NCBI GenBank assembly: GCA_020849105.1
Contig: JADLGW010000044.1
Span: 13,683 to 77,682, forward strand
Origin: Phycisphaerales bacterium
Lineage (GTDB): Bacteria; Planctomycetota; Phycisphaerae; Phycisphaerales; UBA1924
Direction: 5' to 3'
DNA: 64,000 bases
This document shows positions 1,228-53,537 of this stretch, piece after piece (the first letter of the stretch is position 1; every line of letters begins with the position of its first letter). A program made the position numbers and the translations under genes. Below the pieces are notes generated by a model that saw nothing but the letters and a program-made list of their open reading frames with translations, had not been told where the DNA came from and made no database searches.

Positions 1228-3423
1228 ATGCGGCTCATACCCCTTGTTCTTGGCGTTGCCGCGGCCTTCGTGTGTGTGCCCTCGGCACGGGCGCAGCCGG
1301 ACCGCTACGCGGACACCGAGACCGGCTGGGCGTACTACTTCGGCGCCAGCCCGACCACGATCGCGGGCTCGATCGGGCAGGGGCTCCGTCCGTTCAGCGT
1401 CGAGCGCGTGGGGTTCAATCAGTACGACACGATCCTGGTCGGCAACAGCGGCATCTACAGCGCGGGGACGCCGCGGATCGCGTATGACCTGACCCCCACG
1501 GGGGTGTCCGACTGGCTCACGGCGAACAACCTGCGGCTCCTGGACCTGGAGTGCTACGACATCGGGGCCGGGCTGCTGCGCATGACGGCGGTGGGCGTTC
1601 CGAACAGCGGCGGGACGTCGGCGCCGGGCTGGGGCTACCTGTACAACGCGACCGCGGCGCAGATCAACTCGTGGATGAGCGCGAACGGCCAGCGGCTGAT
1701 CGACCTGGATGTGTACTCCCTGAACGGGACGAAGTACTACTCCGGGGTCTCGGTCCCCAACGCCGGCGCGGCCCACCACGACTGGCTGTACGCGTACAAC
1801 CGGACGGAGCAGGAGGTCGTGGACCTGCTGACGCAGAACAGCGCCCGGCTGGTGAGCATCTCCGTGGAGAGCGTGGGCACGATCACGAACCCGGTGGTGC
1901 GGTACACGGTTGTCGCCATCGGCGACAACCCGGGGGCGGGCTGGTTCTACGGGAACCTGTCGGGTGGGCAGGTCGGGAGCGAACTGGCCCGCACCGGCTC
2001 GCGGCTCACCTGCTTCCGGCGGTTCACCGACGCGTTCGGCCAGACCCGCTACGCCGTCGCGATGGTGGACAACGCCAACGCGCAGACGCGCCGCGTCCGC
2101 GACCTGATCTGGGCCGGCTGCACGGGCACGACCGGGTTCCAGATCAAGGAAGTCGGCGGCGGGGTCGTCGCGGGGGTCAACGGCGACTTTGTGTGGGAGC
2201 CGGCCAGCACGATCAAACTCCTGCACGGTGTGTACGCGATCTACCAGTGCGCGCTGGGGAACGACTCGCTCACGGCGAGCGTGTCCTACCGCAACGAGTG
2301 CGCGACCTGCCCGCTTGCCTGGACCTGCGCGCTCACGCTCGACTCGGTGAGCAACTCACTGCGGCGGATGCTCGAGCCCAGCGACAACTACGCGCTCATC
2401 GCCTTCGAGCACCGCTACGGCGTTCCCACGCTCAATAACTTCGCGGCGAGCATCGGCAGCCCGAACATCAAGTCGTTGCGGCAGGACTGCAACTGCGGCC
2501 AGACTCTGAACACGGCCACTTGCACCGACATCGTGAACCTGATGGAGAAGGCCGCGGACGGGAGCCTCTTCGACAGCGGGTGGCGCGACACGCTCTTTGA
2601 CCGCATGAACGACCTGGACGGCCAGGGCTACGGCATCTACCCGACCCTCAGCGGGGTCATCGCCTCCGAGGCGGCGGCGATCAACCTCCCGGCCTCGGAG
2701 CGCGAGAGTTTCCGCACGGCGATGCGGTACGCGAACAAGGGCGGTCTGTACGACTGCTCCGGCCCTCCGCGGCGACTGTGGCACACCGAGGGCGGGTGGG
2801 CGAGCATCCCCCGCAAGGTCTACTTCCTGAACAACTGGGTCGTCGTGCCGCGGGAGTACACCTTCGCGCTGTTCGACGACGCGGCCAGCACCGAGTCGAA
2901 CACGATCTACATGATGAAGGAAGAGATGTTCCGCGAGCAGATCCGCGAGGCGCTGGGCACCTGGAAGAGCGCGTGTACCCCGCGTGTGACCGCCGATCCG
3001 GAGGATGTCCTTGCCGCGGCCGGCGGCTCCGCGGAGTTCACGGTGGAAGCGACGGGATCGGCGCTCACCTACCGCTGGCGCCGCAATAACGTCTACCTGA
3101 GCAACCAGGCCGGGCACATTGCGGGGGCGACGGCCGCGACCTTGCAACTGTCGAACATCGTCCCCGCCGACGCCGGGGATTATTCCTGCGTCGTCAGCGG
3201 CCCCTGCGGGAGCGACACCTCGGCCGCGGCTGCGCTGACCGTGATCGTGCCCGTGTGCTACCCCGATTGCAACGGTGACGGGGCGCTGAACCTGTCGGAC
3301 TTCGGTTGCTTCCAGACCAAGTTCGCCCTGGGGCAGCCGTACGCGGATTGCAACGGGGATGGGCAGCGGAACCTCGCCGACTTCGGGTGCTTCCAGACCA
3401 AGTACGCCCTGGGCTGCCCGTGA
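1228..3423 (+). CDS. Secreted multidomain protein: four ~60-aa tandem repeats, a class-A beta-lactamase-fold serine hydrolase domain, an Ig-like domain and a Cys-rich dockerin-like tail
   Basis: Inner ATG at 1228 gives signal peptide MRLIPLVLGVAAAFVCVPSARAQ. Hydrolase motifs are SxxK (ASTIKLL), SDN (EPSDNYA) and a KGG variant of KTG. The Ig-like stretch is AGDYSCVVSGPCG. The last 55 aa are the CYPDCNGDG...GCP module. The 868-1227 part of the track ORF is an upstream artefact. Confidence 0.85.
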   Translation: MRLIPLVLGVAAAFVCVPSARAQPDRYADTETGWAYYFGASPTTIAGSIGQGLRPFSVERVGFNQYDTILVGNSGIYSAGTPRIAYDLTPTGVSDWLTANNLRLLDLECYDIGAGLLRMTAVGVPNSGGTSAPGWGYLYNATAAQINSWMSANGQRLIDLDVYSLNGTKYYSGVSVPNAGAAHHDWLYAYNRTEQEVVDLLTQNSARLVSISVESVGTITNPVVRYTVVAIGDNPGAGWFYGNLSGGQVGSELARTGSRLTCFRRFTDAFGQTRYAVAMVDNANAQTRRVRDLIWAGCTGTTGFQIKEVGGGVVAGVNGDFVWEPASTIKLLHGVYAIYQCALGNDSLTASVSYRNECATCPLAWTCALTLDSVSNSLRRMLEPSDNYALIAFEHRYGVPTLNNFAASIGSPNIKSLRQDCNCGQTLNTATCTDIVNLMEKAADGSLFDSGWRDTLFDRMNDLDGQGYGIYPTLSGVIASEAAAINLPASERESFRTAMRYANKGGLYDCSGPPRRLWHTEGGWASIPRKVYFLNNWVVVPREYTFALFDDAASTESNTIYMMKEEMFREQIREALGTWKSACTPRVTADPEDVLAAAGGSAEFTVEATGSALTYRWRRNNVYLSNQAGHIAGATAATLQLSNIVPADAGDYSCVVSGPCGSDTSAAAALTVIVPVCYPDCNGDGALNLSDFGCFQTKFALGQPYADCNGDGQRNLADFGCFQTKYALGCP
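3256..3420 (+). repeat. Dockerin-like Cys-rich C-terminal module, copy 1 (165 nt / 55 aa)
   Basis: CYPDCNGDGALNLSDFGCFQTKFALGQPYADCNGDGQRNLADFGCFQTKYALGCP, immediately before the stop codon. Confidence 0.9.
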
Positions 3424-3462
3424 GCGCCCGCAACCTGTCGGTGTGCCGAGGAGAGAGAGGGT

Positions 3463-3490
3463 CGGGCGGCCCGGACGCCCGGCCCTTTTT
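3463..3490 (+). terminator. Intrinsic terminator-like hairpin with T-run
   Basis: CGGGCG-gcccgga-CGCCCG, then GCCC and TTTTT (3486-3490), about 40 nt after the stop at 3423. Confidence 0.6.
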
Positions 3491-3544
3491 CCATGACGGC
3501 CGGGCCACCTGGCGTGGACGCGCCGGCACGATATCCTCTGCCCC

Positions 3545-6500
3545 ATGAAGTTGTTCTCCTCCGCGTTTCTTCCGGCCGTGCTGGCCGCTGCCGCGGCGCT
3601 GGCCCAGCCCACCGGCACCTCGCCCCTCGACCCCCCTCCCAATGGGCCGCGTCACGAGGACCCGACGTGGCACGCCCTGACGCACGCGACGGTGCACGTC
3701 AGCCCCGCTCAGGTCCTCGACGATGCCATGGTCGTGGTGCGGGACGGGCGGATTGTTTCCGTCGGGGCGGGCGACGCGCCGGCGGGGGCGCGGGTCTGGG
3801 ACTGCACGGGCCTGCACGTCTACGCCGGGTTCATCGACCCCTATGTGGAGGTCGATGCGCCGCGGCCGGCCGCCGGGGCGCCGGGCGTCCACTGGAACAG
3901 CCGTGTCACGCCGCAGAGGTCGGCCCTGGACGGCCCGGTGATGGACGAGGGGACGGCCGGATCGCTCCGCAAACTGGGGTTCGCGGCCGCGATTGTGAGC
4001 CCCCGCGGCGGGGTTTTCCGCGGGTCGTCGGCGCTGGTGAGCCTGGCGGCTCCCGCGACCGAGTCGAGCGCCGACCGGCCGCCGGTGTACACGCCCGTGG
4101 CGTACCAGGCCGTGGCGTTCGAGACCGGCGGATTCGGGGGCGGGGATCAGTACCCGGGTTCGCAGATGGGGGCCATCGCGCTGGTGCGCCAGACGCTGAT
4201 CGACGAGACGTGGCAGAGGGACGAGCGGGCCAGAGGGGCGGTGATCCCGCCCAACGCGCTCGACGGGCTGCGGCCGTGGCGCGGTCCGGATGGCCTGCCA
4301 TCGGCGATGCCGGTGAACGATGCGCGGGTGCAGTCGCCGCCGATGGTCCCCCTGTTGTTCGACTGCCGGGATGAACTGGAAGTGCTCCGGGCGATCAAGG
4401 TCGCGGGCGAGTTCTCGCGCACGGCGGTGATCCTCGGGTCCGGGAGCGAGTTCAAGCGTCTGGCCGCGATCGCCGGGGTGGGCAAGCCGATCTTCATCGA
4501 GCCGCTGAACTTTCCGAGAGCGCCCGACGTGGCGGGGGTCGGGAAGGCGGAGTCCGTCGACGTGCGGGAGTTGATGGCGTGGGAACAGGCGCCGACGAAC
4601 CCGCGCCGGATGCTGCAGGCAGGGCTTCATGTGGCGCTCACGACGGCGCGGCTGCGGGATCGGGGCGAGTTCGCGGCGAACCTGAGGAAGGCGATCGCAT
4701 ACGGCCTGTCGCCGGCGGATGCCCTGGCCGGCCTGACCACCGTCCCCGCGATGATCGGCAACACCGGTGACCTGGGCCAGGTGAAGGCGGGGATGCGGGC
4801 GAACCTGGTGGTTGCGGATGGCGACCTGTTTGCCGTGAGCAACGCGAAGAAGCCGGACCCCACGCCCGATGCGGCCGGGCCCGCCCCAAAGGGCGACTCG
4901 GCGAAGGCGGAACGGGCCGAGGGCAAGCCTGACGCGAAGGACGCCAAGGTCCGCGACGTGTGGATCGACGGCGCCCGGTACGAGGTGAACGCGGCTCCGG
5001 ATGAGACCGCGGTGGGCATGTGGACGGTGATCGAGGCGGACGGGAAGCCCGTCCCGGAGGGTGACCCCGCGGCTCCCGGCATCATCATCGACGACAAGGG
5101 CGCCGTGACGGTGCAGGTGGGCGAGAAGAAGGTGAAGGCGACGAGCGTCCATGTGCTGCGGGGGCGCGCGGATTATGTGTACGACACCAAGGAGTTCGGC
5201 GGCACGGGCCTGGTCGCGGACCAGGCGACGATCCAGGGCAAGGAGATGATCGGGGTCACGCGGCGTGCGGACGGGTCGATCCACCGGTGGAAGGCGAAGT
5301 ACACGGGCGAGCCACCGAAGGAGGCCCCCCGGGCCAGGGGCACGGGGGACCGACTCTCAGGGAACTGGGTCTTCGTCATGTACGACGGCGAGCCCGTGGC
5401 GCCGGAGAGGCAGGGCGTCATGTCGATCGCGGCGGACGGCGCGATCACGATCACGGGCAAGGGCAAGGACATCTGGTGGTCCCCGCCGGAGCGGGTCACG
5501 CCGGCCGACGTGAAGGTCGAGGGGGACAAGGTCTCGTTTCATTGGGACCTGACCCGCTGGGGCGGGGAGGTGTTTGAGGCCTCCGCGACACGCACGGGCG
5601 ACAAACTCGCGGGAAAGATCGTCGGGCTGAACAGCAAGATCGAGAGGACCTGGGAGGCTGCCCTGGAAACGCCCCCGCAGCCGGACAAGCCGGCGTCCGC
5701 CGAGACACCTGCGGAGAAGCCGGACCCGACCAAGGACATCCCGGAAACGCTCGCGTACCCGTTCGGGCCGTACGGGGTCGAGGCTCTCCCCCCGCAGGAG
5801 CGGCTGGTGGTGACGAACGCGACGCTGTGGACCAGCGGGCCGCAGGGCATCATCAAGGAGGGCGCCCTTGTCATCGACGGCGGAAAGATCGTGTACGTCG
5901 GGCCCGCGGCATCGCTCCCGGCGCTCGAGGGTGCTCCGCGCACCATCGACGCGGGCGGCCGGCCCGTCACCGCGGGGCTCATCGACTGCCACAGCCACAC
6001 GGGGATCAGCGGCGGCGTGAACGAGGGCACGCAGTCGTGCACGGCGGAGGTGCGGATCGGAGATGTCACCGACCCCGACTCGATCAACTGGTACCGGCAG
6101 ATCGCCGGCGGGCTGACGGTGGTGAACAGCCTGCACGGGTCCGCCAACCCGATGGGCGGTCAGAACCAGGTGAACAAGATCCGCTGGGGCGCCCGGTCGC
6201 CGGACGACATGCACTTTGAGGGTGCGCAGCCGGGGATCAAGTTCGCGCTGGGCGAGAACGTCAAGCGTTCCCGGAGCCCGGACAACACCCGTTACCCGGA
6301 CACGCGGATGGGGGTGGAGGCCTTCATGCGCGATCGGTTCACGGCGGCGCGGGAGTACGCGGCCGCGCGGTCGAAGTGGGAGGCCTCCGACAAGACCGGC
6401 CCGGAGCCGCGCCGGGACCTGGAACTGGACGCGCTGGCGGAGATCCTGGCCGGCACGCGCCTGGTGCACTGCCACAGTTACCGGCAGGACGAGATCCTGA

Positions 6501-8630: not shown

Positions 8631-9317
8631 TCAGCGCCCCTGGGTCGCGTCGTCGCCCGCGGCATCGGCCGGTTCTGCCGGGCCGCGTGTGTACTCGATC
8701 GTCATCATCTTCATTTCCTTGCCATCGGGCCCCGGGCCGTACATGACCATGGTGTGGCTGGTCGGGCTCTTGATGGTGATGACCTCGCGCAGGACCGTGT
8801 CCTTGCCGGTGATCGGGTCGGGGGACGTGCCCTTCATCGAGTAGGTGTGGGTCTTGTCGTCGTAGGTGCCGGTGCTGACCATGATGGACGTGCTCATGGA
8901 GTCGGTCCACGTCGCGACGTACTCCTTCTTGATGTTGTCGTAGCCCCAGTAGCCCAGCCCCTCGAAGGGCATGCCCATCATGTCGCCCTTCCACTCTTGG
9001 CGCAGTTGGCGCCCGCCCAGCACCGGGGTGTTGACCATCGTGCCCATCGAGGTCTGCATGGGGGCGTCGGGGGCCATCTGGAAGGAGCACTTGCCGTGCC
9101 AGGTGCCGGCGAGGGTCATGATGCGGGCGTGCTCCGGGCCCGGCGCGCCGGCCTTCTCCATCGCGGCCATGTACTCGGCTTCGCTCGGCTGACCTGCGGG
9201 CTGGGCCGCCGGCTTGGACCCCGCCGGCTGCGTGGCCTTGTCCGGCTGGGCCAGGCCCGCCAGCACCATGACCGCCAGCGCGCCCACCGACACACCTGCC
9301 ACCTTGCGGAGATTCAT
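8631..9317 (-). CDS. DUF1579-like secreted protein
   Basis: Inner ATG at 9317 is preceded by GAGAAAGGGA. Signal peptide MNLRKVAGVSVGALAVMVLAGLAQP. The C-terminal half (THTYSMKGTSPDPITGKD...MVMYGPGPDGKEMKMMTIEYTR) matches my recollection of DUF1579. Confidence 0.75.
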   Translation of the reverse strand: MNLRKVAGVSVGALAVMVLAGLAQPDKATQPAGSKPAAQPAGQPSEAEYMAAMEKAGAPGPEHARIMTLAGTWHGKCSFQMAPDAPMQTSMGTMVNTPVLGGRQLRQEWKGDMMGMPFEGLGYWGYDNIKKEYVATWTDSMSTSIMVSTGTYDDKTHTYSMKGTSPDPITGKDTVLREVITIKSPTSHTMVMYGPGPDGKEMKMMTIEYTRGPAEPADAAGDDATQGR

Positions 9318-9502
9318 CACGTTCCCTTTCTCTTGCGGACCCCCGGAGACCGACGCCACGCACGCCGCGCGGCGACCGATCATTTCCCAAACATCGGGAG
9401 GAAGTGTAGCCGCGCGGGCAGGGGTGTCAACCCCAGGCCGGGCGCTCGCGGGCGGGGCTGTTGCGAGCATCGCGAGCGGGCGCGAGTCGGGTAGGCTTGT
9501 TC

Positions 9503-9970
9503 ATGCCTACCGCTGCGCGCGCGAGCCGAGCCAATCTGAACGGCGCGAACGTGCGCGACGATTTCACCAACGTGGTCCTGCAGGGCGACGCGGTGGCGCT
9601 CCTCTCGGAGATGCCGGACGCGAGCGTCCACCTCACGGTGTTCAGCCCGCCGTACGACGGCATCCGCGACTACGGGAAGGACTGGAGTTTCGACTCGAGG
9701 GCGCTGGGGTCGGAAGCATCTCGGGTCGGAGGGGATGGCGAGCCAACCGATCGGTAGCAGATGCACGAGTCAATCTTTGAGCACGAGTTTCGATGGGAAC
9801 GCAAACGAGTTCGACTCCAGTACACCATTGAGACGACGCTGTGGGGACGCCAACTCACGCTCCTGGACATTCTTGGCGCCTCAATGACGCATGTTGAGGC
9901 CGTGCCGGATTGGAGGATCGAAGCTGAGGCTTGTGATGCAGCCTGCCGCCATGACGCGAAGTACATGTAA
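9503..9970 (+). pseudogene. Remnant of a beta-class N4/N6 DNA methyltransferase (motif IV only, in-frame TAG, motif I missing)
   Basis: VVLQGDAVALLSEMPDASVHLTVFSPPYDGIRDYG is a typical MTase N-terminus with an SPPY (DPPY-type) motif. ORFs 9461..9757 and 9761..9970 share one frame and are split by a single TAG at 9755-9757. No FxGxG/GSG SAM motif follows. GC drops to about 50% from roughly 9700. Confidence 0.65.
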
Positions 9971-10010
9971 CTCCGTGGGTTCGGAAGCCGACTGAGACGA
10001 TGAACCACAG

Positions 10011-10868
10011 ATGACCACTACCGTTATCGAGGGCCCTTGGCAGCCGGAGTTGAGATCTCTTGTGTCGTCGGCCCGCCTGCGTCTGACGATCTGCACCCCC
10101 TACATTTCCGAGCGCGGCGCCGCCGTTGTCCGGCATGCTCGCGCAGGCGTAGCAGCAACAGGTTGTGATATACTTGTGCTTACGGATCTGTCGGCATCAG
10201 CAATCTGCACAGGCGCAACTGATCCCGAGGCCGTCGCTTCAATTGCAAGGTGCCTCACGAACGTTCGGACGGTGCATCTTCCCCGGCTGCACGCGAAGGT
10301 GTACGCGGCGGACGGCGAGCAGGCGGTTGTCACCTCTGGCAACCTGACCGACGGCGGGCTTCGAATGAACCACGAGTACGGGTTGCTGGTGGACGATCCC
10401 GATCTTGCGGGGCGCATCGAAGCGGGCGTGGCGGCCTATGCGGGGCTCGGCGCGGAGATTGATACCATCACGCTCAATCGGCTGTGCGCGGTGTCCATTG
10501 ACGCGCGGGCGGCATATCAAGCGCAAACTGCGTCTGCGTCGCGGGATGCGACGCGCCGTCTCCGGGCTGTGGTCCGCGCTACGTCCGAGACGCTGCTCCG
10601 CGCCCGGCTCGCAAGGGGGCCAATCCACACGGTCTTTGCGAGGACCATCGAGTACCTGTTGCGTCAGCACGGGCCGTTGTCCACTAAGCAGATTCACCCG
10701 CTAATCCAAGGGCTGCATCCAGATCTCTGCAACGACATGGTTGATCGTGTGATAAACGGGAATCGCTTTGGGAAAAAATGGAAGCACGCGGCACGTACGG
10801 CGCAAGCGCAGTTGAAGAAACGGGGCACGATTACGCTTATGAACGGTGTCTGGGCGCTCGTGCGATGA
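10011..10868 (+). CDS. Single-HKD phospholipase-D-family nuclease (Nuc/BfiI-like) with a C-terminal winged-helix (Mrr_N-like) domain
   Basis: HKD motif HAKVYAADGEQAVVTSGNLT. The C-terminus (HPDLCNDMVDRVINGNRFGKKWKHAARTAQAQLKKRGTI..GVWALV) resembles the restriction-protein wHTH. Local GC is about 50-60%, against about 70% in the flanks. Confidence 0.7.
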   Translation: MTTTVIEGPWQPELRSLVSSARLRLTICTPYISERGAAVVRHARAGVAATGCDILVLTDLSASAICTGATDPEAVASIARCLTNVRTVHLPRLHAKVYAADGEQAVVTSGNLTDGGLRMNHEYGLLVDDPDLAGRIEAGVAAYAGLGAEIDTITLNRLCAVSIDARAAYQAQTASASRDATRRLRAVVRATSETLLRARLARGPIHTVFARTIEYLLRQHGPLSTKQIHPLIQGLHPDLCNDMVDRVINGNRFGKKWKHAARTAQAQLKKRGTITLMNGVWALVR

Positions 10869-11997
10869 CCTCACCGCTCGGAAGCGAGGCCGTAATCCCC
10901 ACCCGCTCCACCACCTCCAGCCCAAAGGCGTCGAGGGCGGGGAGTTCGGTCTGGTGGTTGGTGAGCAGCCGGAGGCGGGAGAGGCCGAGGTCGCGGAGGA
11001 TTTGGCTGCCGATGCCGAGTTGGCGTTCCGCGGCGGAGTCGGCGTGCTCGGGGGCGGCGGAGGGCTCGACGGGGGCGTCGTGGCGGAGGTAGACGACGGC
11101 GCCGCGACCCGCGGAAGCAATCTGGCGCATGGCGGCGCGGAGCGTATCGCCGCCGGCCGCACGGTCGCCGAAGAGGTCGGCGAGAGGCGCGGCGCGATGG
11201 ACGCGGACGAGCGCCGGCTCCGTGGTCCGCGGCACGACGCCGTTTACCGGCACGCCGATGGCGCCGACGGTGAACGCCCAGTGCGGGAGCGGGTCCACGG
11301 CGGAGTGGTACTCGATGAGCGTGAAGTCGCCCATCGGCGTGCGGATCGGGCGGCCCGCGGCGGGTCCCAGCCTGCGGACGAGGGTCTCGCGGGCGAGGCG
11401 GTGGGCGATGATCTGCGCGACCGAGCACATCCGCAGGCCGTGCCGCTCGCAGAGGGCGGCGAGGTCCGGGACGCGGGCCATCTCGCCGTCGTCGCGCATG
11501 ACCTCGATGATGGCGGCGGCTGGGTAGAGCCCGGCCAGGCGGCACAGGTCCAGCGACCCCTCGGTCTGCCCGGTGCGCACGAGCACGCCGCCGTCGCGCG
11601 AGCGGAGCGGGTTGATGTGCCCGGGGCGGACGAAGTCGCCCGGCCCGAAGGCGGGGTCGATCATCATGCGGATGGTCCGGGCCCGCTCGTGGGCGGAGAC
11701 GCCCGTGGTAAAGCCGTGGCGCGGGTGCCCGTCCACGGAGACGGTGAACGCGGTGCCGCGGTGTGTGGTGTTCTCGGTGGATTGCGGGTGGAGTTGGAGG
11801 CGGTCGCAGTCGGCCTCGGTCATGGAGAGGCAGAGGTAGCCGCGGGCGGCGGAGAGCATGAAGTTGACGGCCTCGGGGGTGACGAACTGGGCGGGGAGGA
11901 CGAGGTCGCCCTCGTTCTCGCGGTGCTCGTCGTCGGTGAGGACGACCATGCGGCCGTCGCGGAGGTCGGTCAGGATCTGGGGGATGGGGGCGAACAC
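10837..11997 (-). CDS. ribB: 3,4-dihydroxy-2-butanone-4-phosphate synthase (RibB) fused to a degenerate RibA-like domain (RibBX-like)
   Basis: LTDDEHRENEGDLVLPA is the DHBP synthase signature. GTG at 11997 gives MFAPIPQILTDLRDGRMVVL. The C-terminal domain aligns to GTP cyclohydrolase II, but the Zn cysteines are replaced (VRVHRAAPLADLFGDRAAGGD versus RVHSECLTGD..RCDCG). The start codon is uncertain. Confidence 0.8.
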   Translation of the reverse strand: MFAPIPQILTDLRDGRMVVLTDDEHRENEGDLVLPAQFVTPEAVNFMLSAARGYLCLSMTEADCDRLQLHPQSTENTTHRGTAFTVSVDGHPRHGFTTGVSAHERARTIRMMIDPAFGPGDFVRPGHINPLRSRDGGVLVRTGQTEGSLDLCRLAGLYPAAAIIEVMRDDGEMARVPDLAALCERHGLRMCSVAQIIAHRLARETLVRRLGPAAGRPIRTPMGDFTLIEYHSAVDPLPHWAFTVGAIGVPVNGVVPRTTEPALVRVHRAAPLADLFGDRAAGGDTLRAAMRQIASAGRGAVVYLRHDAPVEPSAAPEHADSAAERQLGIGSQILRDLGLSRLRLLTNHQTELPALDAFGLEVVERVGITASLPSGEVIARAPRHRS

Positions 11998-43399: not shown

Positions 43400-43463
43400 C
43401 CGGCCCGCCTGTATTTCCCTTCTGCTTCGTGCCTCTGTGACTCAGTGCCTTTGTGCCTTCTTC

Positions 43464-44690
43464 CTACGGGCACCCCATCGCGAACTTCGTCTGGAAGCAC
43501 GCGAAATCGGCGAGGTTCCTTACCCCATCACCGTTGCAGTCCGCATACGCCTCACCCAGCGCAAACTTCGTCTGGAAACCCCCGAAGTCCGCCAGGTTGA
43601 GCGCCCCGTCGCCATTGCAGTCGGGATAACAGTCGCAGCCATAGGAAGCCCATTGCCCGGTGGACAGGCTGAAGCTGCCCGCAACGACGATCTGATCCTG
43701 GTACGGCGCCATCGCCGAAATCGTTGCATCGACTCCCGGGTCCATTGAATGCCACGCCGCCCCGTCCCAAGCCGCAACCGAACGCGAGGGTGCGCCGCCG
43801 ACCCCGGTGAAGTCGCCGCCGACAACGAGATGGCTGCCACGGACGATGAGCGCCCCCACCATCATGAGACCTTGCACGGCACCCACCGCTTCCCACTGGA
43901 ACCCGTTCCACCTCGCAAACTTATTCACCGGTCCTGAGAATACTCCCCCAGCGTATATGTCCCCCCCAAACTCGCGGACGGCAAGAACAGGGGAAAAATC
44001 GACACCGAAGAGTCCGGTAGCAAAGCCGGACCAGTCGTCGCCATTCCACCGTGCCACGTTGTTTGCCGGAACGCCGTCGGCATCATAGAAGAGTCCTCCC
44101 GCGACCAGCCCTTCTTTGGATGGACATAGGGCATACACGGCGGGATTATTCAGGTAAGCGCCGGTCATGCCCCCTCTAAGTGGGCGCCAACTCTTGCCGT
44201 CCCATCGGGCAATGCATTGCGCCGGGTTGCCGCCGGCACCATTGAATGATCCACCGATTATCAGTTCGCCCTCCCACTCGCAGCACGAATAGACGGCGCC
44301 CCCCTGTACCCCTATGCCGAGGGTGTGCCATTCGTCGCCGTCCCACGCTGCTACGCGACCAGCCGGAATCCCACCGGCAACCGAGAATGCGCCGCCCGCA
44401 ACCAGCTCCCCTTCATACTGCACAAGAGCCCACACCTGGCCGTTCACCCCAGTCCCGAGCGGCGACCACGCGCCGCTCGGGGCTCGGCGCGCCAGGTACT
44501 TGATTTGATTGCCACCGGCGGTCGCGAACTGTCCGCCCAAGACAAGCTCGTTGTTATACTCAGCGCAAGCGTATACATATGCCAAACCACCGCCCACACC
44601 GGCGGAGACTGGGTACACCGTCCACTCAGGAATGCACTGACCCAGTGCGGACGGCACCAGTAACGCCGACACGAAACAGACAGGCCTCAC
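43464..44690 (-). CDS. Secreted beta-propeller-like repeat protein with dockerin-like tail
   Basis: About 7 repeats of ~50 aa of the form (A/V)A(R/W)WDG..W..LG.G..G.V.A....G.L..GG.F..AGG. Signal-like VRPVCFVSALLVPSALGQ if the GTG at 44690 is used, which overlaps the upstream stop as GTGA. Terminal CYPDCNGDG...GCP. ATG 44726 is the alternative start. Confidence 0.8.
   Translation of the reverse strand: MRPVCFVSALLVPSALGQCIPEWTVYPVSAGVGGGLAYVYACAEYNNELVLGGQFATAGGNQIKYLARRAPSGAWSPLGTGVNGQVWALVQYEGELVAGGAFSVAGGIPAGRVAAWDGDEWHTLGIGVQGGAVYSCCEWEGELIIGGSFNGAGGNPAQCIARWDGKSWRPLRGGMTGAYLNNPAVYALCPSKEGLVAGGLFYDADGVPANNVARWNGDDWSGFATGLFGVDFSPVLAVREFGGDIYAGGVFSGPVNKFARWNGFQWEAVGAVQGLMMVGALIVRGSHLVVGGDFTGVGGAPSRSVAAWDGAAWHSMDPGVDATISAMAPYQDQIVVAGSFSLSTGQWASYGCDCYPDCNGDGALNLADFGGFQTKFALGEAYADCNGDGVRNLADFACFQTKFAMGCP
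43467..43631 (-). repeat. Dockerin-like Cys-rich C-terminal module, copy 4
   Basis: CYPDCNGDGALNLADFGGFQTKFALGEAYADCNGDGVRNLADFACFQTKFAMGCP. Confidence 0.9.
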
Positions 44691-44974
44691 CTGCGCCTCC
44701 CGCTCTCGAGATATAGCATGAAGCACATGAAGTCACGGCTCGTGAGCACACCGTCATGGTCGCAGTCGGCACGCGCGTCACCTGACGCGTAGCGGCTACG
44801 GAAGCACGCCAAGTCGGATAGGTCGACCACCCCATCGGTTGGCAGCACCCCGCGCCTCCCGGTCCGTCCAAGGACCATTTCAGGCCGAGATGCTTTAGTC
44901 TGCCCCAGAGTGCCCATCTTGTCAAGGGTGATCTTCTTCGAATTCTGCCAATCCATGATCTTCGCACGCCGCAT
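44687..44974 (-). CDS. Small ORF (95 aa) that is little more than a degenerate dockerin-like module
   Basis: MRRAKIMDWQNSKKITLDKMGTLGQ...PTDGVVDLSDLACFRSRYASGDARADCDHDGVLTSRDFMCFMLYLESGRRR. No signal peptide. About 55% GC. Its stop overlaps the GTG of the next gene. Confidence 0.45.
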   Translation of the reverse strand: MRRAKIMDWQNSKKITLDKMGTLGQTKASRPEMVLGRTGRRGVLPTDGVVDLSDLACFRSRYASGDARADCDHDGVLTSRDFMCFMLYLESGRRR

Positions 44975-45025
44975 GGCGAATCGCCTGACAGTCCCGGAAT
45001 TCGCCAGCGCATAGGCTCCTGCCGT

Positions 45026-49021: not shown

Positions 49022-50143
49022 ATGGCCCGCACGAACCAGCGAACTCCGCGGACGAAGGTCGAACCGCTACCGGTTGAGTCACCCCGCCCCGTGGCCGCCA
49101 GTGTCCTGGTGGCCGCCCCGAGTCCGCAGCGTGTCGAGGAAGTTGCCTCCGCCCTGCACGGCAGCCGCGTGCTGCGCGCGGGGTCTCCTGACGAGATCCG
49201 GGCCATCCTGCGGGAGACGGCCGTGGACGCCGCGTTCATCGCGTGCGACGCCGGCGACCCCGCGGCCCTGGCCCTGATTGAGCAGACCGTCGGTCGCGCC
49301 GCGGTCGTGGCGCTGGCGCAGCGCCCGACGCTGGAGCACGCGACGGGCCTGATGCGCCTCGGGGCCGCGGACCTTGTCGCGCTCCCCGCCACGCCCCACG
49401 ACCTGCGGGAGCGCCTCGCCGAGGCGCTGGAACGCACGCGGCGATCCCGTCTTCTGGAGGCGCGCGTCGAGCGGCTGCGCCTCGTCTGCCGCCGTCTCAA
49501 TGAAGCCCGTCGCCAGGTCTCCAGCCAGGTCGGCACGCTGTGCAACGACCTGGTCGAGGCCTACCAGGAACTCTCCGACAAGGTGACCCACATGAACGTC
49601 GCCACCGAGTTCAGCAGCCTGATCCGCCACGAACTGGACGTGGAGAGCCTGCTCCGCACGGCCCTGGAGTTCGTGCTCGCCAAGACCGGCCCGACCAACG
49701 CGGCCGTGTACCTCCCCGCGACCAGCGGCGACTACTCGCTGGGCGCGTATGTGAACTTCGACGGTCCCAAGGACTCGGCGGACATCCTGCTGGAGCAGAT
49801 GGCCGGGGTGGTCGCACCGCGCATCGAGCGCGAGAGCGGCGTGTGCTTCCTGAAGCAGGGCAGGGACATGGCGGAGTTTCTCGGCAGCGATGCCCAGTGG
49901 ATCGGGGACGCGGGGGGCGTGGCCTTCCCGTGCCGGCACGAGGGCGAGTGCCTGGCGGTGGTCATCCTGTTCCGCGACCGGCGCACGCCGCTGAGCGAGG
50001 ACCTGCGCCCCGTGTTCCAGACGATCTCGGAACTGTTCGGACGGCAACTGGCGCGGGTTATCCACATCCACCACCGGCACTTGCCGAAGGACCAGTGGGG
50101 CGGCTTCGCCGGGCCGGATGACGACATCGACCTGGCGGCGTAA
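49022..50143 (+). CDS. Receiver-like (apparently degenerate) plus GAF-like domain protein
   Basis: GGGAGG RBS. The REC-like fold (VLVAAPSP...AAFIACDAGDP...VVALAQ...DLVALPATP) lacks the N-terminal DD pair and the conserved Lys. A coiled coil and a GAF-like C-terminal half follow. Confidence 0.7.
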   Translation: MARTNQRTPRTKVEPLPVESPRPVAASVLVAAPSPQRVEEVASALHGSRVLRAGSPDEIRAILRETAVDAAFIACDAGDPAALALIEQTVGRAAVVALAQRPTLEHATGLMRLGAADLVALPATPHDLRERLAEALERTRRSRLLEARVERLRLVCRRLNEARRQVSSQVGTLCNDLVEAYQELSDKVTHMNVATEFSSLIRHELDVESLLRTALEFVLAKTGPTNAAVYLPATSGDYSLGAYVNFDGPKDSADILLEQMAGVVAPRIERESGVCFLKQGRDMAEFLGSDAQWIGDAGGVAFPCRHEGECLAVVILFRDRRTPLSEDLRPVFQTISELFGRQLARVIHIHHRHLPKDQWGGFAGPDDDIDLAA

Positions 50144-51466
50144 CTAGGGACAACCACGCGCGAACTTCGTCAGGAAGCATCCGAAGTCCGAGAGGTTGCG
50201 CACGCCATCGCCGTTGCAGTCGGCGTAGGGCTGGGCGAGGGCGTAGCGGGTCTGGAAGCAGCCGAAGTCCGCAAGGTTGAGCGCGGTGTCGGAGTTGCAG
50301 TCGGGGTAGCAGGACGAGGGCAGCGTGGCCATGTAGATGCCTTCAGCGCCGTTCGTGAACTCGACCCAAAGAGCGATGGACCGGCCGCTGAGCCCCTGCG
50401 GCCCCATGTTGATGTCGAAAGCAAGATTGCCGTCGAGGATGTCGCCCTGGGCCGCGACCTTGGACAGCACGCCGTTCTCCCAGGTGTAAGTGCCGCGGTT
50501 ACCGCCGCCGAAGTGTCCTACGAACGCGATCAGGCCGTCCTCCATCGAAACCCAGCCGAAGCCGTTGAACGTGCCGGAATGGCCTGGGATCGGTGTGTCG
50601 TGGTTCGCGATCTTGATGAGTGTCCCACCGAGGTCGGTGTAGATGCCCTCTTGATCACCGCCCTGTCCGAAGAAGGCCATGGCGCCGTCGTCGTTCAAAC
50701 TCCCCCGGCCAAGATTGGTGAATGTGCCGCCGTTACCGGCCGGGACGACGGTGGCGCGGTCGTACCGGCGGTGCAGGCCGCTGGAGTCGCTGACATAGAT
50801 GCCCTGCTGATTGACGCCGAGCGCGGTGAATGAAACTCGGCCGTTCCGCAGTACGGTGTTGCCGAAATCCGTGAACATGCCCGTGCCGCCGGGAATCAGG
50901 GTGGACCGGTCGGCAATGATCGAGAGCAAGCCGTTCTCCCACGAGTAGACGCCTTTCTGGTTGTCGCCAGATTCAGAGCCAGCGAAAACTACGCGATTGC
51001 TCTCGACAACTGGCGAGTTCGTGATTGCAAATGTGCCACCATTCCCATTCGGCACGAATATGAGAGTAGTGGCGACTGCCATGATTCCCGCGTCGGAACG
51101 CAAGAATACGCCGCCTTCGACGCCGTCGCCCGCTTGAAAACTGGTTGAAGTTCCGTGTATCGAAGGGCGCCAGTTGGCGACAAAGCCAAACCCAGTAAAG
51201 TGTCTTCCGCCCGGCGACAGGGTATTCAGATCCGCGACCACCGTGAGCGGTCCGCCCGATCCGCGATACACACCCTGCATGGTTGACGCCTCGGCCATGA
51301 ACGCAACTACGCCCCGGTCGATCGCGGGCTCTAGGAACTGCTGGAAGGGAGAGATTGCGCCCGGTGCAATAGTGGCCGTGTCCGCAATGCGGCTGACAAT
51401 CACCGGCTGGGCCGCGCCTTGGGACCCCATCAGCAAACCGCACAACGAAATAGTGGCGACTCTCAT
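50144..51466 (-). CDS. Secreted tandem-repeat (NxxGxxAF-type) protein with dockerin-like tail
   Basis: GAGGGAG RBS. Signal peptide MRVATISLCGLLMGSQGAAQP. About 6 repeats of ~55 aa of the form G.F..FG......(N/D)..G..AF......(Q/E)GIY. Terminal CYPDCNSDTALNL...GCP. Lower GC than the flanks. Confidence 0.85.
   Translation of the reverse strand: MRVATISLCGLLMGSQGAAQPVIVSRIADTATIAPGAISPFQQFLEPAIDRGVVAFMAEASTMQGVYRGSGGPLTVVADLNTLSPGGRHFTGFGFVANWRPSIHGTSTSFQAGDGVEGGVFLRSDAGIMAVATTLIFVPNGNGGTFAITNSPVVESNRVVFAGSESGDNQKGVYSWENGLLSIIADRSTLIPGGTGMFTDFGNTVLRNGRVSFTALGVNQQGIYVSDSSGLHRRYDRATVVPAGNGGTFTNLGRGSLNDDGAMAFFGQGGDQEGIYTDLGGTLIKIANHDTPIPGHSGTFNGFGWVSMEDGLIAFVGHFGGGNRGTYTWENGVLSKVAAQGDILDGNLAFDINMGPQGLSGRSIALWVEFTNGAEGIYMATLPSSCYPDCNSDTALNLADFGCFQTRYALAQPYADCNGDGVRNLSDFGCFLTKFARGCP
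50147..50311 (-). repeat. Dockerin-like Cys-rich C-terminal module, copy 5
   Basis: CYPDCNSDTALNLADFGCFQTRYALAQPYADCNGDGVRNLSDFGCFLTKFARGCP. Confidence 0.9.
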
Positions 51467-51476
51467 TCTGTCTCCC

Positions 51477-53537
51477 TCACTCCAAGAAGCTGAGGTCCGT
51501 GAATGCCTCCGCCATGTCTGCGTTGGTAAGTGCAGTAGTCGTGTCGATCATCCCTCCGAACCACCTGAACTCGCACACCTCGCCTGAAGTGCTGACACCG
51601 CCGCTTGGCCCACGAAAACGCAGTTCGGTGAATGGTGCGGACGGAGTAAAGGAAATCCCGGCCGGGACCACCTGAACACGATCGCCACCGACACTCACCC
51701 CGACATACAGCTTGTGGACAGACGAATCGTATCCCACCGCAATCAGGACAGGAGAGTCCGCAGTCCAGGCGATGTGCGGAACATTGTTCACGTCGACGCC
51801 CGCCTCGTGGTTGGTCACAGTCCCGCCGATGGAAACCGCAATCCGGAGAGTCTTTTCCTCACAGTTGGCGATGAGGGCGATCCAGTTGGAACTGTCGGCC
51901 CAAGGGGTGCAGAGCGGCCAGCGGCGATCGCTTTCGAACTGACCGGTACCGCTGTTGAATTGCCCCCGTGCCGCGAAGCGATCCCAGTTTCCGACCGGCA
52001 TCATGCCCACGAGTTTCACGGACCAGTCGGTGGTTGTGCCGAGGCTGAAGTTGTAGATCCGCAGCAGTTCATCCGGCGCATCGATGAGGTGGCTTCCTTG
52101 AGGGGCCAGCGGATAGGGGAGCGCGCCATTGCCGTCGAGCGCCGTATCGATCAGAAGGTAGTAATAGTTCTCGTCGACATCCGTGTCGATGCCGCTGTCC
52201 CTGGCGTACATGCGGAGCGTGAAGCCGCCCGCGACATCGAGGGGGCGGCCGCACTGTGCCCAAAGATTGGGCTCGGAGGAGTCCGGGCAGTACAGAACAC
52301 GGTCGGCGTCCCGGTCCTGGCCGGCGAGGGCCTCGGCCTCCATGTAGCAAGCAACGATGGGGTTCTCGTTGGCCGTTCCGCCCGTCAGTTCGGGCCGCGG
52401 CTGCGTCAGATTGAAGACGGAGCCTGTTGCGTTATTCGTTCCAACCGAGGTGCCCCACCCGTACAGATGATCAAACTGCGCTTCCTGGACCTCACCGGCA
52501 TCGGCAGGAAGCCGCGTGGCAAAGAGCGTCTCCGTCCCCAGGTCCGCCCCCCAGAACATGACGCGTTCCACGGGGCTGAACGCCGCACACACCGGCTGGG
52601 GGCTTGTGGTTGACACCGGGTACGGATCGGGATCGGTGACCGGCGTGCCCACGCCGTGGAAGTTGTCGGTGAGGGTCCAGTTGCCCGGATCGGAATAATC
52701 AAGGTCAATGTCGTCAAGTGACGCATGAATGAAACGAGCCAGGCCCTTGCCGTCTCCCGTCGACATTAGAACCTGAACACCTTGGGAGTCCTCTTCACCG
52801 GTCCACTCGGTTGCGATGGCGGAGTGCACGTGGTAGACCGGACGTGTGTTTGGGGCCCAGATGTCGAACGCCATCACCCATGCCTGGTGCGGGGAAGCGG
52901 GATTACGCTGGACATCCCACGGACCCACACTGTCTCCCTCGATGGTCCGCACGATGTGGAAGTAGTACCCGCGGCCGGAAGCAGCCTCGGGCTCAGAAGG
53001 GCTCGCGGCCTTGTTGATGTAGTCAGAACTGACGATCGCGCACCGCCCGGGCGGGTCTGCGGGGTCGCGTTCGTAGACCGGCGCGGCCCGCACGCACCAG
53101 ACTTGGCCTCGTCTCTTGAAACGCTGCGCGTGCGACGTCGGCGCATCCGAATCGTCCCACAGTAGGGTCCAGGCACTCTGAAGGGGGTCGCTGAGCGCGA
53201 AGCCCCACCCGAGAATCTCGTACTTTGGAGGGTCCGCTGTGTCGTCCGTGCATATCCAGACCGGGCCGCCGGCGACAATCGCCCCATGAAAGACAACGAC
53301 GGAATGCACCTCGAGGGCCTTGTTCCCGATCGTCTGCGGCTTCAGAAGCACGTCCGAGAATTCAGTCAGCCCGACCGCGACGGAGAGCGAATCTGGCTCG
53401 CGTATCTCCATGTTGGTGACCGATGCCTCTCCGCTCCCAAAGGGGGGTGTTCCCGTGATCGTGCCGCCGTGAAATGTCCAAAGCGGACACGGCAACTGAC
53501 TCGGACCGCCTGACGCAAACGCGTCCGCGTACACCAT
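51477..53537 (-). CDS. Large hypothetical protein (~686 aa): no signal peptide and no recognised catalytic motif, with a possible C-terminal LamG/jelly-roll
   Basis: Uninterrupted ORF with coding-like composition. It ends 10 nt before the next gene. ATG at 53537 overlaps the stop of a small upstream ORF (TGATG). TTG 53579 and GTG 53564 are alternative starts. Confidence 0.7.
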   Translation of the reverse strand: MVYADAFASGGPSQLPCPLWTFHGGTITGTPPFGSGEASVTNMEIREPDSLSVAVGLTEFSDVLLKPQTIGNKALEVHSVVVFHGAIVAGGPVWICTDDTADPPKYEILGWGFALSDPLQSAWTLLWDDSDAPTSHAQRFKRRGQVWCVRAAPVYERDPADPPGRCAIVSSDYINKAASPSEPEAASGRGYYFHIVRTIEGDSVGPWDVQRNPASPHQAWVMAFDIWAPNTRPVYHVHSAIATEWTGEEDSQGVQVLMSTGDGKGLARFIHASLDDIDLDYSDPGNWTLTDNFHGVGTPVTDPDPYPVSTTSPQPVCAAFSPVERVMFWGADLGTETLFATRLPADAGEVQEAQFDHLYGWGTSVGTNNATGSVFNLTQPRPELTGGTANENPIVACYMEAEALAGQDRDADRVLYCPDSSEPNLWAQCGRPLDVAGGFTLRMYARDSGIDTDVDENYYYLLIDTALDGNGALPYPLAPQGSHLIDAPDELLRIYNFSLGTTTDWSVKLVGMMPVGNWDRFAARGQFNSGTGQFESDRRWPLCTPWADSSNWIALIANCEEKTLRIAVSIGGTVTNHEAGVDVNNVPHIAWTADSPVLIAVGYDSSVHKLYVGVSVGGDRVQVVPAGISFTPSAPFTELRFRGPSGGVSTSGEVCEFRWFGGMIDTTTALTNADMAEAFTDLSFLE

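Follow-up and report, generated by a model that had tools for sequence, protein, structure and literature searches.

What does an intact nuclease gene do beside a DNA methyltransferase gene of which only the front part is left? The question is raised by a locus at 9431-10890 in a stretch of 64,000 nucleotides from a Phycisphaerales bacterium (assembly GCA_020849105.1, contig JADLGW010000044.1, positions 13,683 to 77,682 of the forward strand), here called the window, and its genome the window genome. An initial annotation described the locus as a low-GC islet in which a decayed methyltransferase (methylase), broken by an in-frame TAG, stood next to an intact nuclease of the phospholipase D (PLD) type with a single HKD motif and a C-terminal winged helix (wH). 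It offered three options for a nuclease that outlives its methylase: (i) dependence on modification or no need of protection, (ii) a defence function outside restriction-modification (R-M), or (iii) inactivity. We find that the locus is a horizontally acquired cassette of three open reading frames (ORFs), namely a methylase stub, a small conserved gene (orf2) and a PLD-wH nuclease gene, and that the nuclease has no need for a linked methylase. With somewhat better than even confidence, we read the cassette as carrying a stand-alone, likely mark-reading nuclease and as born in a wrecked phage-type methylase operon.

Insertion of a Three-Gene Cassette

Three plus-strand ORFs lie between the gene of a DUF1579 lipoprotein (8631-9320, minus strand) and ribBA (minus strand, 3' end at 10837), and with their edges they form the cassette of ~1.4 kb:

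9431-9502, plus strand: left edge of the cassette and 5' leader of the stub ORF; the boundary is approximate, placed from the ribBA-lipoprotein spacing in relatives and a promoter-like site
9503-9757, plus strand: MT-N' stub, 84 aa, N-terminal piece of a phage-type beta-class (N4/N6) DNA methyltransferase, ending at TAG 9755-9757
9761-9970, plus strand: orf2, 69 aa, a conserved small partner gene, not derived from a methylase, as judged from homologues upstream of PLD genes
10011-10868, plus strand: intact PLD-wH nuclease gene, 285 aa (PF13091, homologues, structure model, substitution rates)
10837-10890, minus strand: right edge of the cassette, where the 3' end of ribBA is prolonged into the cassette by ~16 codons, antisense to its end

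ribBA adjoins the lipoprotein gene in five relatives, which belong to the family of the window genome, at a distance of only 150-340 nt, and this adjacency, together with the cassette between the two genes in the window and an altered RibBA tail, indicates an insertion. RibBA of the relatives stops 4-6 residues past the sequence VERV; the window copy ends VERVGITASLPSGEVIARAPRHRS. The insertion rewrote the RibBA C-terminus, with ~16 extra residues coming from the antisense of the cassette end, and because of this 16-residue tail ribBA overlaps the PLD gene by 32 nt. On the left, the promoter-like site of the minus-strand lipoprotein gene occupies 9430-9403. Neither an integrase nor a tRNA or boundary repeats were found at the insertion site, as the initial annotation had noted for integrase and repeats. 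The genes around the cassette encode amidohydrolases, the lipoprotein, RibBA and Ffh.

Base composition also counts for an insertion of foreign DNA. The GC content at third codon positions (GC3) is 63-69% in orf2 and the PLD gene, as opposed to 91-93% in four neighbouring genes, and is 85% in the stub. Overall GC is 62.1% in 9461-10868 and 69.8-70.9% in the flanks; the islet first described is thus real, but the 50-53% given for it holds only locally, some 60-nt windows falling as low as 43%. Two other stretches of the window, ~50000-53000 and ~43400-45000, equal the islet in low GC or fall below it, at 60-62% compared with a window mean of 69%. The islet was checked in three independent Logan assemblies, each from a different sequencing run; all agree with the window at 100% over 1,580 nt, including the TAG at 9755-9757.

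The distribution of the nuclease among relatives is patchy. Beyond the window genome, a full-length copy is present in one of 40 relatives, at another site and with orf2; the rest yielded PLD fragments in one genome and six weak matches to the PLD domain only. In G013, which belongs to the same family as the window genome, the orf2-PLD pair is found at another genomic location. G004, of the same family again, has only PLD-wH fragments at two loci (L091 and L098; residues 228-283 and 121-201), one of which adjoins the remnant of a 249-aa nuclease-like gene; these fragments indicate that the cassette itself decays too in some lineages.

The PLD-wH Nuclease

The third gene is intact, as first proposed, and encodes a single HKD motif. 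Its product passes the Pfam family PF13091 (PLDc_2) with 49.4 bits against a cut-off of 27, and the HxK(x)4D(x)6G(S/T)xN motif stands complete within a PLD fold, as in the nuclease branch of the PLD superfamily. All 26 family-invariant residues of the N-terminal part (through G147) are present, those of the HKD motif included. More than 700 homologues of ~285-300 aa were found in Planctomycetota, Chloroflexota, Acidobacteriota, Bacteroidota, Omnitrophota, Verrucomicrobiota, archaea and others, and within the clade the ratio of nonsynonymous to synonymous substitution rates (dN/dS) of the nuclease is 0.09-0.13. Public gene calls begin the nuclease at an internal GTG, codon 88, giving a 198-aa protein without the front half of the PLD domain; the 285-aa ORF from ATG 10011 is favoured by homologues and fold model. 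The AlphaFold2 (AF2) model of the full-length protein has a pLDDT of 91 and a pTM of 0.88, and the C-terminal domain modelled alone a pLDDT of 80. The parts of the protein are as follows:

10011-10430, plus strand: single-HKD PLD catalytic domain, residues ~1-140 (Foldseek matches)
10290-10343, plus strand: HKD motif HAKVYAADGEQAVVTSGN (H94, K96, D101, S109, N111), invariant in a 26-sequence alignment (A1)
10464-10610, plus strand: two long helices, residues 152-200, linking both domains (AF2 secondary structure)
10623-10865, plus strand: C-terminal winged helix, residues 205-285 (AF2 and Foldseek)

The best Foldseek matches of the PLD domain were SauUSI (7clg), a two-HKD phospholipase D (7e0m), NucT (6ehi), Nuc (1byr), Zucchini (4gel) and BfiI (2c1l), so that the domain groups with nuclease-type PLDs. 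As known from Nuc and BfiI, single-HKD proteins have to form dimers to build one active site, which cuts DNA independently of metal through a phospho-histidine intermediate. By analogy, two copies of the window protein would bring their HKD motifs together in a joint active site that needs no metal and cut in the same way, and the two-helix linker seen in the model is a possible dimerisation element.

In the AF2 model, the C-terminal domain consists largely of helices and has a wing of two strands, which is the wH fold, and Foldseek matched it to wH domains only, among them Zalpha/Zbeta, PadR, cullin WHB and the Rpa2 wH, although weakly (E >= 0.06). The resemblance to Mrr_N in the initial annotation is borne out as a fold class only, as the nuclease had no Pfam match to Mrr_N (PF14338) at E <= 1. 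No PDB sequence, DpnI included, matched the wH profile at E <= 1, and DpnI was outside the top 50 Foldseek matches. No other part of the family's proteins is as conserved as this domain (HPDLCDD..DRVIDGKRFGKKWKHAVRTAQQQLKK), whose mean column identity across phyla is 65% (alignment A3). Its invariant residues H236, D238, C240, D245 and H259 (10716-10790, residues ~236-260) surround a lower-confidence loop and a beta-hairpin that precede the recognition helix, an insert foreign to ordinary wH domains. In the model, this cluster might hold a metal or form a pocket for a base.

The Methylase Stub and orf2

The initial annotation placed a methylase-related ORF at 9461-9757 that retained only an N-terminus with the SPPY motif. 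The ORF exists, and its start is most likely ATG 9503, which agrees with the MP(A/T)T... start of homologues and with independent gene calls of 84 aa. Profile matches confirm the relationship and are limited to residues ~20-75 around SPPY (PADLOC MTase_II, E 1.6e-8; phrog_67, E 3.9e-8); in PADLOC, NCBIfam and PHROGs alike, the stub aligns with only the first ~40-50 profile positions. In Pfam it had no match at E <= 1, including the full PF01555 domain, on which a full-length relative at locus L106 scores 108.9 bits. Beyond ...ALGSE, near residue 70 of 84, homology is lost. The stub contains motif IV (SPPY) and no motif I, so the locus lacks the cognate methyltransferase with both motifs that a type II R-M system has. 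In the permuted beta class, the half that binds S-adenosylmethionine (AdoMet; motifs X and I-III) is C-terminal. We found neither this half nor any other methylase sequence in any frame of 9400-10900, and there is no space for one; the absence of an FxGxG motif after SPPY, noted at the outset, holds, and the islet has no room for it. Because the whole AdoMet-binding half is missing, the stub cannot work as a methylase, in agreement with the initial annotation. It keeps all 17 covered positions that are at least 95% conserved in 119 full-length relatives; an 18th covered conserved column falls in its misaligned tail. Its closest paralogue in the window genome is 34% identical, and this genome encodes at least five full-length N4/N6 (PF01555) methylases.

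The TAG at 9755-9757 is indeed in frame with the ORF at 9761-9970, but it does not break a methylase, and that ORF, taken at first for the continuation of the gene, is the unrelated orf2. Genes of this type are conserved and 65-71 aa long; 13 other loci have homologues with 39-50% identity immediately before the PLD gene, with invariant residues F10, D36, P49-D50-W51 (the PDW motif) and E56, and the dN/dS of orf2 is 0.2-0.25. A profile search of 1.84 billion proteins returned ~24 clusters, nearly all of free-standing proteins of 47-92 aa and none of methylases, and orf2 had no match in Pfam, NCBIfam, PADLOC or PHROGs. We rejected orf2 as a diverged methylase middle, which has no profile support and does not fit homologues that are nearly all free-standing small proteins. 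The frame shared by stub and orf2 is a coincidence, since the two are in different frames in six of the eight loci that have both. Read-through of the TAG, or a sequencing error hiding a full methylase there, was likewise rejected on this ground, because the next ORF is an unrelated conserved gene, and because the TAG is identical in the three assemblies. No full-length methylase can thus be restored.

Truncated Methylases Beside the Nuclease in Other Genomes

We compared 80 loci from many phyla that encode relatives of the nuclease. In 28 of them, as in the window, a 3'-truncated beta-class amino-methylase in the same orientation lies directly upstream of the nuclease gene or orf2, usually less than 100 nt from its start. 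The truncation points number a dozen or more and range from ~residue 40 to ~233 of ~290; of the upstream methylases, only that of L029 keeps motif I, and that of L080 stops inside it. Two methylase subfamilies, SPPYDGIRDYG and SPPFGLVRKKDYGN, are mainly involved; the archaeal L080 has a third type, less closely related to these. In three loci the methylase is downstream of the nuclease, and in two of them (L062 and L070) it is complete; loci without a methylase have unrelated genes upstream. Since 28 of the 80 loci pair a truncated methylase with an intact nuclease, the nuclease has no need for a linked methylase, which speaks against a classical type II enzyme and agrees with option (i) of the initial annotation; of the three options this one fits best, also in light of the published PLD-wH class (Front Microbiol 2024, PMC11037411).

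The order stub-orf2-PLD, or orf2-PLD alone, recurs at different genomic sites in L002-L014, from other Phycisphaerae. In clades other than Phycisphaerae, the usual order is truncated methylase, PLD-wH gene, a small CxxCxGxG protein and an MTaX1-HNH nuclease. This cysteine-rich protein of ~80-110 aa (CxxCxGxG ... CDxCD ... C..GG.HA) lies just downstream of the PLD gene in many such loci (L016, L020, L025, L035, L036, L038, L054, L058 and others), often followed by the MTaX1-HNH gene, and it has no Pfam family; the window has neither gene. An attempt to relate orf2 to this zinc-ribbon partner of other clades failed (hhalign probability 0.5%). Many members of the nuclease family have neither small gene within reach.

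Avoidance between PLD-wH genes and methylases of the stub subfamily was also sought in 150 genomes of the class, with no match at 65% identity or more, but the subfamily is too rare for statistical power.

Origin in a Wrecked Methylase Operon

The undisrupted form of the operon that the cassette has wrecked elsewhere was found at L106 (G042:C1:2110500-2119500), on the minus strand at 2096-4900 of the locus, in a prophage-like region of a complete chromosome, beside a capsid-type gene. In this phage-type operon, a methylase gene (288 aa) is joined by an ORF of 406 aa, whose C-terminal part has a CxxC...C motif, and by a PD-(D/E)xK-like ORF of 249 aa; the latter two belong to no Pfam family. At L007, residues 1-141 of the methylase are followed by orf2, PLD-wH and the last ~90 residues of the 249-aa gene, and at L002 the same two operon remnants are 91% and 80% identical in amino acids to the intact genes. 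Compared with the intact operon, these remnants indicate that the middle of such an operon gave way to orf2 and PLD-wH.

Within the clade, the stub is ~141 aa long at L007 and L008, ~95 aa at L002, L003, L004, L006 and L012, ~70 aa in the window and ~30 aa at L005, and it is absent at L009-L011, L013 and L014. With the exception of L005, the window stub is the shortest and most altered of its clade, with ~13 residues deleted and a diverged tail. The stepwise shortening shows that the cassette arrived in the window genome already truncated; judged from these sequences, the stub came within the three-ORF unit, and its end is a deletion or cassette junction.

A further contrast points to repeated joining. 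The flanks of L016/L019 and L032, a methylase stub to the left and an HNH region to the right, share 83% nucleotide identity, but their PLD genes are only 49% identical in protein, and the methylase is joined at ~165 in the former and ~233 in the latter. A tree of stubs and 119 full-length methylases was also built, but its common region of ~70 residues is too conserved to separate a single origin from multiple origins.

Selection on the Stubs

The stubs of relatives are under strong purifying selection, which was unexpected. We estimated dN/dS for five pairs of loci from two methylase subfamilies, each pair sharing one junction and hence having diverged after truncation; the window stub, which has no close relative, stands outside this set:

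L004-L006: dN/dS 0.18
L002-L003: dN/dS 0.14
L007-L008: dN/dS 0.16
L016-L019: dN/dS 0.06
L059-L060: dN/dS 0.05

Synonymous divergence in these pairs is 0.36-1.4 and neutrality is rejected (p = 7e-7 to 9e-21), so that the constraint on the stubs equals or exceeds that on the nuclease genes. The stubs concerned are 95-165 aa long, keep nearly all family-conserved residues and end at, or overlap, the start of the next gene. The "decayed" methylase of the initial annotation therefore stands in so far as the window stub cannot work as an enzyme, but the stubs of its relatives are not decaying freely. Gene conversion from a full-length paralogue was considered as a cause of the low dN/dS and rejected, because no second copy was present in 11 of 11 subfamily-A genomes and in eight of nine clade-B genomes. 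Two explanations remain: either the stubs are functional, or they have been repeatedly refreshed by recombination with incoming functional alleles.

Three observations count against an essential role of the stub: it was lost or shortened in several lineages, the stubs of L019 and L047 contain in-frame stops, and that of L003 (5427-5759, complete chromosome CP054186) has SPPC in place of SPPY. The L003 genome also keeps a full-length SPPY methylase copy in a prophage-like region.

Interpretation and Alternatives

The reading that we favour would work as follows. The effector would be a stand-alone PLD-wH DNA endonuclease whose highly conserved winged helix picks the target. It would recognise a feature of foreign DNA, base methylation being the leading candidate, and act in type IV-like restriction or defence, as proposed for the PLD-wH class. 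In its history, orf2 and PLD-wH inserted into a phage-type methylase-X-nuclease operon, the middle of which was deleted, and the 84-aa stub is the left scar, carried along with the cassette into the window genome. A methylation-dependent nuclease may settle only where the conflicting methylase is destroyed, which would explain the recurrent truncated methylases.

Several points weigh against this reading. The dependence on methylation, as it stands in this analysis, would be an indirect conclusion, and the wH is not detectably DpnI-like by sequence or among the top 50 fold matches, which leaves the protein a putative member of the published m6A-reader group. Purifying selection on the relatives' stubs is not expected if these are pure scars. 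G042 holds an intact PLD-wH gene together with an intact full-length methylase of the stub's subfamily, which is awkward for an attack on the mark of that methylase unless the prophage gene is silent; moreover, the full-length N4/N6 methylases of the window genome could either protect against the nuclease or conflict with it. Finally, the published PLD-wH genes proved toxic, attempts to express them in E. coli and to purify the enzymes failed, and the toxicity of Aba4572I extended to dam- cells (PMC11037411).

This toxicity, also without Dam, would be expected if the PLD-wH protein were a non-specific DNase toxin of a toxin-antitoxin or abortive-infection system, held in check by orf2, as its position suggests, and possibly by the stub, and freed on phage infection, with methylation irrelevant. 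The tight linkage of the conserved orf2 immediately upstream agrees with such an arrangement, as does the different small protein of the CxxCxGxG zinc-ribbon type immediately downstream in other clades, but the two proteins are unrelated and many family members have neither within reach, and the 65% column identity of the wH suggests specific recognition instead of an unspecific toxin; we consider this account unlikely. Somewhat harder to sustain is a classical type IIS-like enzyme in the style of BfiI, its cognate methylase lost from the locus and protection supplied in trans from elsewhere in the genome. Such an enzyme would share the architecture of BfiI and BmrI (N-terminal PLD nuclease, C-terminal DNA-binding domain), the genome has full-length PF01555 methylases to draw on, and a few family members do lie beside complete methylases (L062 and L070, downstream) or one that keeps motif I (L029, upstream). 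Yet the stub has no paralogue closer than 34%, and a second close methylase copy was found in none of the 11 subfamily-A genomes searched. Across many phyla, the linked upstream methylase is truncated in ~27 of 28 cases while the nuclease is intact, the reverse of what post-segregational killing leads one to expect, and the wH hardly varies from phylum to phylum, whereas type II enzymes paired with different methylases have diverse specificities.

That the entire islet, nuclease included, is a dead relic not yet degraded in the window genome appears improbable to a still greater degree. The window does have the most altered stub of the clade and lacks the downstream remnants found elsewhere, a relative (G004) holds PLD-wH fragments only, and a scan found no plus-strand sigma-70-like promoter, but such a scan is uninformative for Planctomycetota promoters. 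None of the three ORFs is interrupted, the nuclease has every residue that is invariant in its family, the stub keeps its 17 conserved positions, one misaligned tail column apart, and the sequence is identical across assemblies from three runs. A different possibility, which we regard as doubtful but worth keeping in mind, concerns the stub: PLD-wH cassettes may specifically colonise and disable amino-methyltransferase and R-M operons, the leftover front half being exapted to work in the system, for example as a regulator, a nuclease inhibitor, or a sensor or decoy for incoming (phage) methylases of the same dimer-forming class, with which it would pair. The low dN/dS of the stubs, their retained conserved residues and their ends at the start of the next gene speak for this exaptation. 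If the selection on the stubs reflects function, half an enzyme would have been recycled as a component of a defence system.

Overall, the stand-alone, probably mark-reading nuclease appears as a mobile, self-sufficient unit, found repeatedly where the back half of a methylase used to be and accompanied by lineage-specific small partners. Such recurrent placement is expected if the enzyme attacks methylated DNA and establishes only where the conflicting methylase is knocked out. For annotation, this means that an orphan nuclease beside a methylase pseudogene should not be taken as a dying R-M system.

Comparison with Known Systems

The comparison with PADLOC that the initial annotation called for gave MTase_II for the stub, a weak DrmC match for the nuclease and none for orf2. 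The likeness to DrmC of DISARM consists of weak profile matches over the HKD region (PADLOC DrmC, E 2e-11; NCBIfam NF038319, 52.9 bits), and membership was rejected, as 52.9 bits is far under the cut-off of 133, no drmA, drmB or drmM is nearby, and DrmC has no wH. Nuc (pKM101, 1byr) and NucT (6ehi) share the catalytic fold and the single HKD motif but are secreted or periplasmic non-specific nucleases without a DNA-recognition domain. SauUSI (7clg), an ATP-dependent type IV enzyme, provides the best structural match of the PLD domain (E 1.3e-6) and is likewise a PLD nuclease, directed against modified DNA; however, it is ~950 aa long, with a helicase motor and an SRA-like reader, in contrast to 285 aa without an ATPase in the window protein. 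With BfiI and BmrI (2c1l), the window protein has in common an N-terminal single-HKD PLD domain (Foldseek E 3.4e-5, phmmer E 0.075), a C-terminal DNA-binding domain and the expectation of dimers with one shared metal-independent active site. By contrast, the DNA-binding domain of BfiI is a B3-like beta-barrel and that of the window protein a wH, and BfiI works with intact cognate methylases, whereas the methylase linked in the window is a stub.

We know of no PLD-wH nuclease, a class described only in 2024, that has been purified or whose cleavage target anyone has shown. Two fusions of this class, Aba4572I and CbaI, are candidate N6-methyladenine-dependent type IV endonucleases (PMC11037411). 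They have the same domain order as the window protein, a single-HKD PLD domain followed by a C-terminal winged helix, a likeness drawn from architecture and not from sequence comparison, and their taxa are similar, the window family including members from Anaerolineales and Chloroflexota (L024, L033 and L051). The class was defined by a DpnI wH, to which the wH of the window protein has no detectable similarity in sequence or fold. As in the window family, the gene of Aba4572I lies directly downstream of an amino-methylase gene, an arrangement in which its authors saw a potential conflict through self-restriction (PMC11037411). That description covered 27 examples, without truncated methylases, small partner genes or the behaviour of a cassette, whereas the window family has more than 700 members. 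The locus in the window is a stub-orf2-PLD-wH variant of this recently described, biochemically uncharacterised nuclease class.

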